Shown here: piece by piece, positions 16,226 to 36,675 of the stretch | Numbering within the stretch: the stretch's first letter is position 1 | Layout: the number at the start of each line of letters is the position of its first letter | Assembly: GCA_039198955.1 (NCBI GenBank) | Contig: JBCCTI010000031.1 | Location: 2,046 to 66,045, forward strand | Direction: 5' to 3' | DNA length: 64,000 nt | Source: Bacteroidota bacterium | GTDB taxonomy: Bacteria > Bacteroidota > Bacteroidia > Cytophagales > Cyclobacteriaceae | The notes under the pieces: model-generated | What the model saw: the letters and a program-made list of their open reading frames with translations, nothing else | What the model was told of the DNA's origin: nothing | The model's database searches: none | Position numbers and translations under genes: made by a program

Positions 16226-16673
16226 AAGATTACAAATTGCAGATTGAAAAATTGTAAGATTACAAATCGTTAAGGATGGCGAAGAAAATTGAGCAGTTTG
16301 AAGACTTACCGATCTGGCAGCAAGCGGTTGATATTGCTTCTGAAGTATATCTGCTAAGTAATCAAGACGAATGGAAGTATTCTTTTGGTATTAAAGACCA
16401 GATACAACGATCGGCATTGTCTATCTCCAGTAATATCGCTGAAGGTTTTGAGTATGACAATACCAAAGATTTTATCCGTTTTCTCCGGTACGCTAAAGGC
16501 TCAGCCGGAGAGCTACGCAGTCAACTATATATTCTTTATCGCTCAGAGATAGTCCAGCGGGCTGAATACGAAGCCCTACACACTAAACTTCTGGAAATGT
16601 CCCGTCAACTATCCGCTTTTATGAAATACCTGAAGTCACGCACCCAATAATTTGCAATTTTCCAATCTACAAT
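16214..16673 (+). mobile_element. Inverted-repeat-flanked four-helix-bundle cassette between trpE and trpG (mobility inferred)
   Basis: Arm 16236-16257 matches the reverse complement of 16652-16673 at 19 of 22 nt; both arms are built of ATTxxAA-type heptamers. Confidence 0.55.
16276..16650 (+). CDS. Four-helix-bundle protein (23S rRNA IVS-protein family)
   Basis: FEDLPIWQQA, KDQIQRSALSISSNIAEGF and FLRYAKGSAGELRSQL. Confidence 0.9.
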   Translation: MAKKIEQFEDLPIWQQAVDIASEVYLLSNQDEWKYSFGIKDQIQRSALSISSNIAEGFEYDNTKDFIRFLRYAKGSAGELRSQLYILYRSEIVQRAEYEALHTKLLEMSRQLSAFMKYLKSRTQ

Positions 16674-17280: not shown

Positions 17281-17661
17281 ATGAATAACAAGAAGCATTT
17301 ACAACTAAATGATATTGATGCCTATAAAGCTGCTTTTAGCTTGAGTAATAAGGTATGGAGCATCATAACACGGTGGGATCATTTTAGTAAAAATACTGTA
17401 GGCATTCAGTTTGTCCGCTCAGTAGATTCAGTATCCGCGAATTTAGCGGAGGGATTTGGACGCTACGGGAAGAAAGATAAAATTAAATTCTGTCGCTATG
17501 CTTTAGCCTCAGCGTACGAATCCCTAGATTGGAATGAAAAGTCTAAAGCAAGATGCTTAATTACAACAGATATATACGAAGTGAATTTCCTAGAGCTGCA
17601 AAAATTACCTAAAGCCATAAACGCTTTAATAAAATTCACCAACAGCCATTTGACCATTTAA
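17281..17661 (+). CDS. Four-helix-bundle protein (23S rRNA IVS-protein family), second copy
   Basis: QFVRSVDSVSANLAEGFGRY...KIKFCRYALASAYESLDW; flanked by short tandem repeats. Confidence 0.88.
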   Translation: MNNKKHLQLNDIDAYKAAFSLSNKVWSIITRWDHFSKNTVGIQFVRSVDSVSANLAEGFGRYGKKDKIKFCRYALASAYESLDWNEKSKARCLITTDIYEVNFLELQKLPKAINALIKFTNSHLTI

Positions 17662-33168: not shown

Positions 33169-35835
33169 TTACTCTGATCGTAGATTATCGGCAGGATTAA
33201 CCAGTGCCGCTCGAATGGATTGATAGCTGACGGTAAGCACCGCGATTGTAATAGCTATTAAACCGGCTAAAGCAAATACATCCCACTCAATGGGTATGCG
33301 GTATTCATAATCTTCTAACCAGGTCTGCATGAAATACCAGGCAATAGGAATGGCGATTACCAGCGATATCAAAATGAGTATTAGGTAGTTTTGGGTGAGT
33401 AGGCGGAAGATTTGTCCGAAAGACGCTCCTAAGACTAGCCGGATGCTAACTTCTTTTCGACGTTGTTCCGCCATGAAGGCCGACAGAGCGAATAGGCCAA
33501 GGCAAGCAATGACAATCGCCAGGATAGCAAAACTGGTAAAAATTCGCCCCATGCGTTTTACATCGGCGTACATCATGGCAAAACTCTCATCCAGAAAGGT
33601 GTAACGAATACCTTGGTTAGGAGAAAAACGATCCCACACCGCCGTTACGGCTTCTATTGTTTCTGGCATATCAGCGGTATTAACCTTCACTGATACCACC
33701 GAAGGGCTGTTGCCTAATACCAGGCAGAGTGGGCGAATTTTTTCTTTTAGCGATTGATAATTGAAATCCTGCACCACTCCGATAATCTGCCAGACATCGC
33801 CGCGGTTGGTAATTCGCTCGCCGATGGGATTATCCAACCCCAATTCCTGCGCCATTCGCTGGTTAATGATTACTGCCTGAGAGTCACTAGCCATCTCAAT
33901 ATTGAAGTTTCGCCCTTCCACAATGTTCATACCTATTGTCTGCAGGTAGTCTTCATCCGTACGCCATATCTGGGTTCCTACTCCTACGTCCTCATTTACT
34001 TTTCCCTCTTTCCAAAAAGAATTCTGATTTCTCTTCGTACCAGCAATGGGTAAGTAGTCGCTAACGGATACTTGTTTTACATCTGATAATTGCTGCAACT
34101 CGCTTTTAAAAGCAGGTAGCTGGTTCTCTAAAGTATTAGCACCCTGAAGCAGTATTACCTGTTCTTTATCAAAGCCCACATCTTTAGTGAGGATAAACTG
34201 CATCTGTTGGTAGACGATAGCAGTACTAATAATTAATATGATGGAGGTAGCAAACTGAAAAATAACCAGAGCGCTACGGAGCTTAGAGCTTTTACTACCT
34301 CGAGTCACTTCTCCCTTTAGTACCTGGGCAGGTTTAAAGCGGGAAAGATACACTGAGGGATAAAGCCCGGCTAGAATGCCAATAACTACGGCTAGTGCTA
34401 CTAACACCGGTAAAAACCACCACGCCTGCCAAGGGAAAGTTAAGGTTTTGGCTGATAAATCGTTGAAGTATGGCAGCAGTAAGAATGCTAACAATATCGC
34501 TAAGACAAATGACAAAAAGCTAATTAATAGCGACTCGGTTAGAAACTGATGAACTAGTTGACGGCGAGCCGAACCAATCGCTTTTCGTAGTCCTACTTCC
34601 TTGGCGCGATTGGCCGACTTAGCGGTAAAAAGATTGACAAAGTTAATCCCGGCAATGAGCAAAATAAAGCCCGCAACTGCACCGAATAGCCAGACAAAGC
34701 GTATATCACCGTGATTAAGGCGATCTCTAATACCGTTTGAGTATAAATGGATATCACTGATAGGTTGTAACTCTACGCTTAGGTTTGAGGCAAACGCTTC
34801 AGCATTCACCATACCTCCTTCTTGGAAGCTGGGCAAGAAATAGTTTTGAATGATCCCCTTCGTCAGCTTGGCTTCCAATGCATCAGCCTCGGTTCCAGGC
34901 TGAACCCTAATATAAGTATGGTAGTTGCTCGATCCCCAAGAGGTTTGTTCACCCTCCCAAAATTCCCGACCAGTCATTGTAATTAGAAAATCATATTGAA
35001 AATGAGAGGTGGCCGGAAAATCTTCAAAGACTCCGCCTACTTTGTAGAGCTGACTTTCATCGTTACCAAGTACTAGCGTCTGGCCTAAAGGATTTTCATC
35101 AGGAAATAATTTATTGGCTTGGCTCTGAGAAATGGCGATAGTATTAGGCTCCGCTAAGGCTCTTGGTAGTTCGCCCTGAACAAAGTTGGGCCGGAGTATC
35201 TCTAGCAACTCCTGATCGGCGTAGACAAAACCTTCTTCGTAGATATTCTCAGCCTGATCCGCCCGACGCACTTCTCTACCACCAGCACCAAATAATTCGC
35301 TGGCGTTTATCCTGCCCGAGGCTTCAATTTCTGGAAAGTCGTCTTTTAGTACACTAGCCATTGGGGGTGGAAAATGTATTCCTTTTCGAATCTCCCCCTG
35401 ATCGTTGAATACACCAACTACTCGGTAAATACAATCACCATCCGAATAGTGCTGATCGTAGCTAAGTTCATGCTGAATAAATAAGGTAATTAACAAACAG
35501 GCCGTAATGCCCAGGGCAAGCCCGCCAATCTTAATCAAAGAGTAAGTTTTCTGCTTCCTCAGGTTTCTCCAGCCAATTTTAACATAGCTTTGGTACATAG
35601 CACGATGGGTTAAGTTGTAAAATGTTGTTAGATTACGGATAGCAAATGGTCGTAGATAGTGAAATACCTGATACCAATAATTGCGCTTAGCTTGACCTAA
35701 CGAGTGTTCTTCCAGCGTTTGGTAGAACTTCTCTTCTAAATCCCCTTCTACTTCTTCGGCTAGTTCGCCCCGAAGGAACCAGCGGAGAAAGCGTTGAGCG
35801 AGTTTGGGTGGTACATTGTCAGGATCAGGATTCAC
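33169..35835 (-). CDS. MacB/FtsX-family ABC permease with permease-prefix domain
   Basis: NFVNLFTAKSANRAKEVGLRK and NPADNLRSE; GTG start, internal ATG at 35598. Confidence 0.9.
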   Translation of the reverse strand: MNPDPDNVPPKLAQRFLRWFLRGELAEEVEGDLEEKFYQTLEEHSLGQAKRNYWYQVFHYLRPFAIRNLTTFYNLTHRAMYQSYVKIGWRNLRKQKTYSLIKIGGLALGITACLLITLFIQHELSYDQHYSDGDCIYRVVGVFNDQGEIRKGIHFPPPMASVLKDDFPEIEASGRINASELFGAGGREVRRADQAENIYEEGFVYADQELLEILRPNFVQGELPRALAEPNTIAISQSQANKLFPDENPLGQTLVLGNDESQLYKVGGVFEDFPATSHFQYDFLITMTGREFWEGEQTSWGSSNYHTYIRVQPGTEADALEAKLTKGIIQNYFLPSFQEGGMVNAEAFASNLSVELQPISDIHLYSNGIRDRLNHGDIRFVWLFGAVAGFILLIAGINFVNLFTAKSANRAKEVGLRKAIGSARRQLVHQFLTESLLISFLSFVLAILLAFLLLPYFNDLSAKTLTFPWQAWWFLPVLVALAVVIGILAGLYPSVYLSRFKPAQVLKGEVTRGSKSSKLRSALVIFQFATSIILIISTAIVYQQMQFILTKDVGFDKEQVILLQGANTLENQLPAFKSELQQLSDVKQVSVSDYLPIAGTKRNQNSFWKEGKVNEDVGVGTQIWRTDEDYLQTIGMNIVEGRNFNIEMASDSQAVIINQRMAQELGLDNPIGERITNRGDVWQIIGVVQDFNYQSLKEKIRPLCLVLGNSPSVVSVKVNTADMPETIEAVTAVWDRFSPNQGIRYTFLDESFAMMYADVKRMGRIFTSFAILAIVIACLGLFALSAFMAEQRRKEVSIRLVLGASFGQIFRLLTQNYLILILISLVIAIPIAWYFMQTWLEDYEYRIPIEWDVFALAGLIAITIAVLTVSYQSIRAALVNPADNLRSE

Positions 35836-36330
35836 TGGATGATAAGATTATCAGGATTTTACTTTCTGAATGATTAACTTTTTGCTTTATGTTCTTTACT
35901 GAATAGACGCTTAACCTCGAGGCTCCGCGCCCCAAAATTGATGAGTAATCCTTTATCTATCTTATAAGCTTGTAGATAATTAAGTCCTTGTGCTAGATGA
36001 GCGTCTTCCAGCTGGATGACTGCCTTTAGCTCCACGATTACTTGGTTTTCTACTATAAAGTCAGCCCTTCTAGTACCTACCTGTATATCTTCGTAATAAA
36101 TAGGCATTTCCAACTCCCGCGCAAATCCTAACCCTTGCTTCTCCATTTCAATCGCTAAACACCGTTGGTAAATCACTTCTTGAAACCCGTTGCCCAAAGT
36201 ACTATGAACTTTCGTAGCACACCCGATAATCTTATATGTCAAAGGATCGTTAATATCTTCTTTCATCTTCCAAATTTTTTTAATCGCTAGGTTATAATCC
36301 TGCTAATCCCACCATCCCGTGAATCCTGAT
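35824..36330 (-). mobile_element. GxxExxY cassette bounded by 38-bp imperfect inverted repeats (mobility inferred)
   Basis: 35824-35861 vs the reverse complement of 36293-36330: 32 of 38 identical. Confidence 0.6.
35874..36266 (-). CDS. GxxExxY protein (PD-(D/E)XK nuclease fold)
   Basis: IIGCA..VH..LGNGFQEVIY, RADFIVE...IVELKA, AQ.LNYL and GLLINFG. Confidence 0.92.
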   Translation of the reverse strand: MKEDINDPLTYKIIGCATKVHSTLGNGFQEVIYQRCLAIEMEKQGLGFARELEMPIYYEDIQVGTRRADFIVENQVIVELKAVIQLEDAHLAQGLNYLQAYKIDKGLLINFGARSLEVKRLFSKEHKAKS

Positions 36331-36345
36331 ACTGACATTATAATC

Positions 36346-36675
36346 TCACAATCCAGACCATCCCGGTCGAAACTGTCGCCATAGAGATACTTTCAGATCG
36401 CGAGAGATTTCCAGGGCGCGCTGACCGTAGGCTGTGATAGTGTAAATGCGCTTACGGCGCCCGCCCCGTTCGGCAGTAGCTTGTCCCATTTCGGAAGTGA
36501 GAAAGCCTTTATCCTCCAGTCGACTTAGCGTAGAGTGTACCGCGCCAATAGAAACCGACCGGCCAGTTTGAGATTCAAATTCTTCGGCTAGCTTGAAAGC
36601 GTAAGCTTCCTTACCCAAAATGCCTACCAGCAGCAGAACGGTTTCTTCAAAGTCACCTAAACGAGATTCTTTCAT
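36346..36675 (-). CDS. PadR family transcriptional regulator (short subfamily)
   Basis: LGDFEETVLL, SIGAVHSTLSRLEDKG and GGRRKRIYTITAYG. Confidence 0.9.
   Translation of the reverse strand: MKESRLGDFEETVLLLVGILGKEAYAFKLAEEFESQTGRSVSIGAVHSTLSRLEDKGFLTSEMGQATAERGGRRKRIYTITAYGQRALEISRDLKVSLWRQFRPGWSGL

Follow-up and report, generated by a model that had tools for sequence, protein, structure and literature searches.

A putative GxxExxY nuclease gene framed by inverted module arrays between the padR and permease genes of a Cyclobacteriaceae bacterium

How a gene for a small predicted nuclease comes to stand between two genes of a host operon, framed by inverted repeats that also contain the start codon of the next gene, is the question raised by a locus in the Bacteroidota bacterium assembly GCA_039198955.1 (Cyclobacteriaceae). 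The locus lies in a stretch of 64,000 nucleotides, here called the window (contig JBCCTI010000031.1, positions 2,046 to 66,045 of the forward strand), and consists of a gene for a 130-residue GxxExxY protein between a padR-family regulator gene and a gene for an 888-residue permease. The original prediction, made from the sequence of the window, had described an insertion cassette whose arms form an RNA stem that could gate translation of the permease, with the PD-(D/E)XK protein as a candidate mobiliser or toxin. Comparison with the relatives of the protein and with related genomes identifies the feature as one copy of a widespread class, in which a single GxxExxY gene is enclosed by inverted ends made of an octamer and four phased modules. 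The explanation considered probable here is a small repeat-armed DNA element, whose nuclease recognizes its own module arrays and which has ridden in the host operon as a long-term resident while decaying in sister species.

Anatomy of the cassette and its protein

The inverted arms are found at 35812-35861 and 36293-36342, each 50 nt long, with 41 of the 50 positions complementary and a gap of 431 nt between them. Their local inverted-alignment score is 64, whereas 246 equally spaced control positions of the window give 30 at most, and against shuffles the arms reach z = 19. The 32 identities over 38 nt that were reported in the original prediction are confirmed, although the repeat is in fact longer. 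In the mRNA sense, the full arms form 41 Watson-Crick pairs and 4 G-U pairs with 5 other mismatches, and the earlier count of three G-U pairs among the six mismatches of the 38-nt core was likewise correct.

The periodicity of about 9 nt noticed at first reading is real, and was seen because of an array of four GGAT(T/G) modules in each arm, spaced at 9, 8 and 9 nt exactly as in the family logo described below. All parts of the cassette are read on the minus strand. The upstream (5') arm (36293..36342) has its outer end, TGTCAGTATC, from 36337 and carries the modules ATCAGGATT CACGGGATG GTGGGATT AGCAGGATT, which match the logo of TGTCTGAA followed by four GGATT modules. In the downstream (3') arm (35812..35861), the modules read AATCC TAATC CATCC GAATCC, and the end CCTGACA is at 35817. 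Written as a family end, the window arm reads TGTCAGTATCAGGATT CACGGGATG GTGGGATT AGCAGGATT, in agreement with the logo, and the terminal octamer of the element is TGTCAGTA/TGTCAGGA, the family form being TGTCTGAA. The cassette is a separable insert of about 521 bp, bounded by TGTCAG and CTGACA, and its gene is framed by inverted arms of phased short modules, as in the class proposed here.

The open reading frame (ORF) between the arms (35874-36266, minus strand) exceeds the cut-offs of both curated profiles, PF13366 (PDDEXK_3; E 2e-40, 138 bits, cut-off 22) and TIGR04256 (GxxExxY; E 6e-43, 145.8 bits, cut-off 35), and its product contains the E...D...ExK core together with the G-x-x-E-x-x-Y motif. 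Residues G27, E30, Y33, D69, E79, K81, Q93 and Y97 are invariant in an alignment of 37 relatives, and the E..D..ExK and QxxxY residues of the window protein are intact. An AlphaFold (AF2) model of the protein (pLDDT 91) shows an alpha-beta structure with a minimal PD-(D/E)XK core. The closest fold in the PDB is that of Cas4 SSO0001 (4ic1, E 5e-4); next come alkaline and lambda exonucleases, the nuclease domain of AdnAB and MGME1. Based on this model, the protein is predicted to fold as a minimal RecB/Cas4-like PD-(D/E)XK nuclease.

The nearest named relative of the protein belongs to a Fulvivirga metagenome-assembled genome (85% amino acid identity), and a sequence search against solved structures gave no meaningful match. 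The defence families of PADLOC yielded a weak Cas4b match alone (E 0.007) and the phage families of PHROGs yielded nothing. With no partner gene and no defence-family match beyond this weak one, the proposal of a toxin finds no support, while a role as mobiliser is a reasonable inference. One survey that lists PF13366/GxxExxY gives the function of the family as 'Unknown' (PMC3424549).

Gene and arms as one inherited unit

The family was sampled as the 80 nearest relatives of the window protein, which come from many phyla, together with this genome's own copies, and flanking inverted repeats were judged against shuffles and against positions displaced by 1300 nt. At 50 of 79 loci the gene was flanked by an inverted repeat with z>3, compared with 5 of 139 displaced controls. 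A mismatched-pair control for arm similarity was unusable, as motifs are common to the arms of different loci. This genome has three GxxExxY copies, and every one of them stands between inverted repeats with a motif of their own. Among the nearest relatives, TGTCTGAA stands in inverted orientation at both ends of 44 of 83 loci (4 in the wrong-orientation control), and the hosts of these loci include Bacteroidota, Ignavibacteriota, Calditrichota, Chlorobiota, Fibrobacterota and others. Elements with the octamer at both ends are 449-805 bp long. A logo of 88 ends consists of TGTCTGAA and then GGATT modules at +11, +20, +28 and +37, that is, with a spacing of 9-8-9.

The type of module (GGATT, GAATT or TGATT) tracks the protein tree and not host taxonomy. 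Only 4 changes of module type occur on the protein tree, compared with 13.2 for shuffled labels, and none of 200 label shuffles reached 4 or fewer. Since module type clusters on the protein tree, gene and arms are inherited and transferred together, and in hosts of different phyla they travel and evolve as a single unit.

The elements are also sited in a characteristic way with respect to host genes. Of 39 elements in which both neighbours could be called, 27 have both of them in the same direction as the nuclease gene, and copy L002 is antisense to its flanking genes. In 26 of 41 elements, the upstream stop codon falls between 35 nt inside the left end and 15 nt before it, and in 6 of these it is the TGA within TGTCTGA. 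An ATG lies at most 6 nt past the right end in 19 of 44 elements, compared with 3 of 44 on the mirror side (p 1e-4). Thus, where genes are tightly packed, the elements occupy the space between one stop and the next start. Across the wider family, the next gene usually starts just outside the end of the element, unlike at the window locus. A DDE-type insertion sequence or miniature inverted-repeat transposable element was considered as an identity for these elements and rejected, there being no fixed-length target-site duplication around the inverted ends; at locus L086, one 15-nt flank repeat was seen, which resembles a partial duplication of the arm.

Related structures occur elsewhere in this genome. 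Hairpins that lack the gene, with a length of 136-190 bp and the ends TGTCTGTATC(A/T)GGATT...GATACAGACA, are found on C9, C80, C11, C52, C57 and C28, downstream of paralogous lipoprotein genes, and no extra genomic arm copies of L002 and L003 were found. Further, the genome contains eleven genes for four-helix-bundle proteins (PF05635, '23S rRNA IVS protein', where IVS stands for intervening sequence). Most of these are framed by inverted short-module arrays, each with a motif of its own (GGGTnnAGGGT, GACAGTCGACGG and ATTGACAGTTGA are examples), which is the same design as that of the GxxExxY cassettes. Two of the PF05635 genes are in the window (16300-16614 and 17311-17622, plus strand), the others being on C24, C10, C6, C20, C40, C34 and C27.

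The lipoprotein paralogues associated with the gene-less hairpins (C11:90729-92514, C52:1524-2813, C57:33799-35097, C28:74900-76207, C9:353-1756 and C80:212-1510) are about 430 residues long, with an N-terminus of the form MK..K..W..MLLIG...SC(D/E)-rich and the C-terminus KLW(GD). On the 3' side of each, a terminator-like hairpin is followed by the gene-less TGTCTG hairpin, and some copies also have a conserved ORF of about 71 residues (..DRYYWEL..LRDDPDH(K/R)HRILLRAIKQT..). The assembly is interrupted at C98 (both ends), C9:1-141 and C80:1-141 by a gene-less hairpin with TGTCTGTATC ends that is about 140 bp long. The 20.5-kb contig C98 holds half of the hairpin, inverted, at both of its ends, and C9 and C80 begin with the other part. 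Thus, this 20-kb segment may lie between inverted copies, and could be invertible or mis-joined.

Persistence and decay at the padR-permease junction

In the window, the upstream gene of the operon encodes the padR-family regulator (36346..36675, minus strand), and its stop codon is 3 nt ahead of the arm. The 3' end of padR (36338..36368, minus strand, ...RPGWSGL*) is itself arm-like, 36338-36365 being a degenerate direct copy (71%) of the inner part of the upstream arm at 36292-36319. The downstream gene (33169..35835, minus strand) encodes an FtsX/MacB-type duplicated permease with a 'permease prefix 2' N-terminal domain. As the original prediction had placed it, its GTG start (35835-35833) falls within the downstream arm, at 21-23 bp inwards from the outer end of those 50 nt, and the right end of the element encodes the first six permease codons (MNPDPD).

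The states of this junction were collected by a DNA search of 30 relatives, after which the junctions were read. An intact cassette is present in five species of the same genus (G000, G013, G005, G001 and G012), arms with an internally deleted gene are present in G010, gene-less hairpins of about 86-195 bp with the same ends in G011, G006, G009, G014, G007 and G008, and the right end alone in G002. A clean junction, in which the padR stop is followed by ATG, was found in G004, G015 and G003 of the same genus and in G017 and G018, which belong to two other genera. These five junctions, which have neither arms nor gene, are the empty sites that the original prediction had proposed to look for, and its insertion cassette is supported both by them and by the recurrence of the gene-arms unit across phyla.

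The permease start, (A/G)TG(A/C)ATCCTGrTyCAGACA, is at the same place in the right arm of all occupied and gene-less copies. Therefore, the host gene takes its start and first six codons from the element. The five intact syntenic copies differ by a non-synonymous divergence (dN) of 0.03-0.06 with saturated synonymous divergence (dS), and dN/dS is 0.01-0.035. The cassette at the padR-permease junction is thus old, vertically inherited and under strong purifying selection, and its decay in sister species has left hairpins that lack the gene.

In G005 and G001, padR reads straight into a single arm copy, and the left arms show truncation or rearrangement. The padR C-terminus of G013 is another one (FPPFATDYN), which resembles that of the empty-site species and abuts TGTCAG. 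These differences in the padR C-terminus, together with the arm-like padR end in the window, suggest repeated rearrangement or re-insertion at the junction. The otherwise clean junction in G003 (L117, G003:C32:23850-24400) has the sequence TGTCTGAATG / GGTGTCTGAATGCAT in its padR stop region, in which an exact TGTCTGAA octamer and the padR stop codon overlap. This octamer may have been left behind by a lost element, may be a natural target similar to the element end, or may be a chance occurrence (about 1 in 1000 for a 30-nt window).

Across 31 genomes, the GxxExxY gene is present in 0-5 copies at differing places, several of them truncated or stop-containing. At the L002 site, G005 has a 91-nt spacer with a small hairpin of its own and G013 has an extra permease gene, and hence this site offers no clean empty state within the genus. 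In the genus, the spacers that separate tandem FtsX-type permease genes regularly contain small hairpins that have short-module repeats of their own, such as GATGG...CCATC and GCAGTGAACAATGAACAATTGC (L130, G005:C101:10040-10270; L131, G013:C1:6172240-6174940).

Competing explanations and known systems

In transcript folding, the arms pair in both the minimum-free-energy and the centroid folds, with an overall fold z-score of -2.35. The suggestion in the original prediction that G-U pairs favour a stem at the RNA level found no support beyond the window locus. Over 32 in-register elements, the arm mismatches comprise 45 G-U, 65 A-C and 223 others; the orthologous G013 copy has 1 G-U against 6 A-C, and ten junction copies pooled have 40 G-U and 43 A-C. 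Compensatory changes among homologous arms, whose absence it had named as one sign against itself, were not found. The arms are about 75% complementary overall, and spacer positions are complementary at 57% within an element compared with 43% between elements. What is kept across phyla is the terminal octamer and the GGATT modules as sequence, and not pairing at the spacer positions; such conserved sequence modules are the pattern that would be expected of protein-binding ends. An rRNA-type IVS with a selected RNA stem is not supported as the identity of the cassette, since neither a G-U excess nor compensation was found. A search of 35600-36600 with Rfam returned two chance-level matches only.

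For the DNA element considered probable here, anatomy, distribution, co-inheritance, selection and the decay series have been demonstrated, while binding, cutting and insertion are proposed by analogy with the Ssn/NTS and RAYT/REPIN systems. By this analogy, the modules would be the nuclease's own binding sites and the terminal octamer would be its cutting site, and recognition would probably take place on DNA, either duplex or folded single strand, rather than on RNA. The element would be transcribed within the host operon, and as part of it would need no promoter of its own.

Several observations weigh against this explanation. Simple linkage would also be expected to produce co-variation of arms and protein. 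No target-site duplication recurs consistently, the longest words common to both flanks following the distribution of shuffled pairings. No recent movement was seen, nor any near-identical copies at separate sites, and the three copies of this genome share only 60% and 35% identity. Because neither target duplication nor recent movement was seen, the mechanism is one that we infer. Clean and occupied junctions differ by about 45 nt of replaced sequence and not by a simple insertion, and thus the insertion boundary is not clean. The gene-less hairpins downstream of the lipoprotein genes may have been copied together with their flanks, because these flanks are paralogous. Strong purifying selection on one old syntenic copy fits a host-useful gene no worse than an active selfish element, and the literature searched contains no biochemical data for any PF13366 protein.

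A bolder form of the same explanation, tentative and on the whole unlikely, is that GxxExxY cassettes are unrecognized minimal autonomous DNA elements across phyla, with a RecB/Cas4-like nuclease of 125-130 residues as the sole element-encoded protein. The nuclease would assemble on the four phased modules of each end and cut at the TGTCTGAA terminus, and insertion would take place at the stop/start junction of tightly coupled genes. The left end would give the stop (TGA in TGTCTGA), and the right end would precede or supply the next start. With stop and start so supplied, insertion would be nearly harmless and transcription by the host operon would be ensured.

Three other explanations were weighed. 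It is quite unlikely that the cassette serves as a host regulatory hairpin, in which the stem would hide the permease start codon and so couple or limit permease translation relative to padR. The position of the start codon in the right arm is indeed constant across occupied and gene-less orthologues, six species retain the hairpin after loss of the gene, and the right arm is more conserved than the synonymous sites of the neighbouring ORF, although this conservation is partly due to coding for the permease N-terminus. However, a plain junction suffices in three species of the same genus and in two other genera, the left arms of G005 and G001 are truncated or rearranged, pairing is weak (15-23/42) in several gene-less copies, and the downstream start is outside the end in the wider family.

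Very doubtful, too, is a domesticated site-specific nuclease of benefit to the host, which, like SsnA with its NTS repeats, would cut single-stranded DNA (for instance incoming DNA) at the arm motif and modulate the recombination or uptake of DNA with such motifs, the arms around the gene being no more than the founding copy. A dN/dS of 0.01-0.035 over saturated synonymous divergence in syntenic copies is consistent with such a role, as is the resemblance to Ssn, also a small single-domain nuclease framed by its own repeats (PMC11893778), and the enzymes with a related fold (Cas4, lambda exonuclease and MGME1) have single-stranded DNA or DNA ends as substrates. Only about 6 extra arm copies are present in this genome, however, all in paralogous contexts, compared with the hundreds of NTS in Neisseria. 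L002 and L003 have none at all, and the gene has been lost in many relatives.

Least probable is an IVS-like RNA element, whose transcript stem would be cut by RNase III or by the encoded nuclease to separate the padR, GxxExxY and permease messages. The predicted pairing of the arms, the orientation of most elements with the host operon, the mismatches of the window arms (4 of 9 G-U, none A-C), the gene-between-inverted-arrays design of the PF05635 'IVS protein' genes in this genome and the excision of the ORF-bearing Coxiella IVS by RNase III (PMC4990558) agree with it, but there is no G-U excess across the family or in the junction orthologues, complementarity is only about 75% (57% in spacers), the octamer and modules are conserved in sequence across phyla where a plain double-stranded RNA substrate needs none, copy L002 is antisense to its neighbours, and the fold z-score is only -2.35. 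Moreover, none of the 80 nearest loci is in rRNA or contains 23S or 16S rRNA motifs, and a search with universal motifs found no rRNA in this assembly.

An understanding of these cassettes may be useful in several ways. PF13366/GxxExxY is a very large family, and its fixed partnership with module arrays gives a first testable substrate, namely its own arms. If the protein binds and cuts the arms, it would represent a third enzyme fold for the design of a small nuclease framed by its own repeats, a design that is already in print for two other folds (HUH/Y1 and GIY-YIG), and it may offer a compact sequence-specific nuclease. For genome annotation, the cassettes account for orphan small ORFs and hairpins wedged between operon genes in Bacteroidota and other phyla, and such wedged elements give stop codons to upstream genes and, at the window locus, the start codon and first residues to the downstream gene. 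Literature searches on GxxExxY, PF13366, PF05635 and IVS-type elements returned no description of a repeat-armed GxxExxY architecture.

Several known systems share parts of this design, the closest in print being Ssn/NTS and RAYT/REPIN. The transposons Tn7 and Mu have several transposase-binding sites in each end. Similarly, the ends of the cassette begin with TGT...ACA, and each inverted end has several phased modules resembling binding sites. Unlike Tn7 and Mu, the cassette encodes no DDE transposase, its only protein being the nuclease of 130 residues, and it shows neither a target-site duplication nor signs of recent transposition. The 23S rRNA IVS of Coxiella that carries an ORF is also about 0.4-0.5 kb long with terminal inverted repeats enclosing the small ORF, and it too lies in a transcribed host unit and was horizontally acquired and then vertically kept (PMC4990558). 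In contrast to the cassette, which is between protein genes and lacks an RNA-pairing signature, IVSs are located in rRNA helices and are removed by RNase III.

In REPIN/RAYT systems and REPtrons (Bertels and Rainey, 2011, PMC3116915; Di Nocera et al., 2013, PMC3733652), inverted repeats likewise flank a small enzyme gene, gene-less inverted doublets make hairpins elsewhere, the sites are extragenic, between co-directional or convergent genes, and the gene is vertically inherited over long periods. RAYT is a HUH/Y1 (IS200/IS605-like) transposase relative, whereas the GxxExxY protein is a predicted RecB/Cas4-like nuclease with the PD-(D/E)XK fold, and membership of this group was rejected on that basis. 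Further, REPs consist of a GTAG or CGTC tag and a simple palindrome, in contrast to the phased module arrays of GxxExxY arms, and REPIN populations are large, compared with 0-5 genes and few hairpins here.

The Ssn nucleases with their NTS/SRM repeats (Chenal et al., 2025, PMC11893778) differ from the cassette in fold, being GIY-YIG single-domain enzymes, and the predicted PD-(D/E)XK fold of the GxxExxY protein was again the reason for rejecting membership. Their repeats are single short hairpins, unlike the octamer and four phased 8-9-nt modules of GxxExxY arms, and NTS number hundreds of copies per genome compared with a handful of arms. Cutting of single-stranded DNA beside the repeat has been demonstrated for Ssn (PMC11893778), while cutting by the GxxExxY protein is a proposal made here by analogy. 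In other respects the two systems are alike: a single-domain nuclease of about 100-130 residues is encoded by a gene framed by inverted repeats of 20-50 nt, the variants of repeat and protein go together, and the family is widespread and was formerly annotated as 'hypothetical' (PMC11893778).

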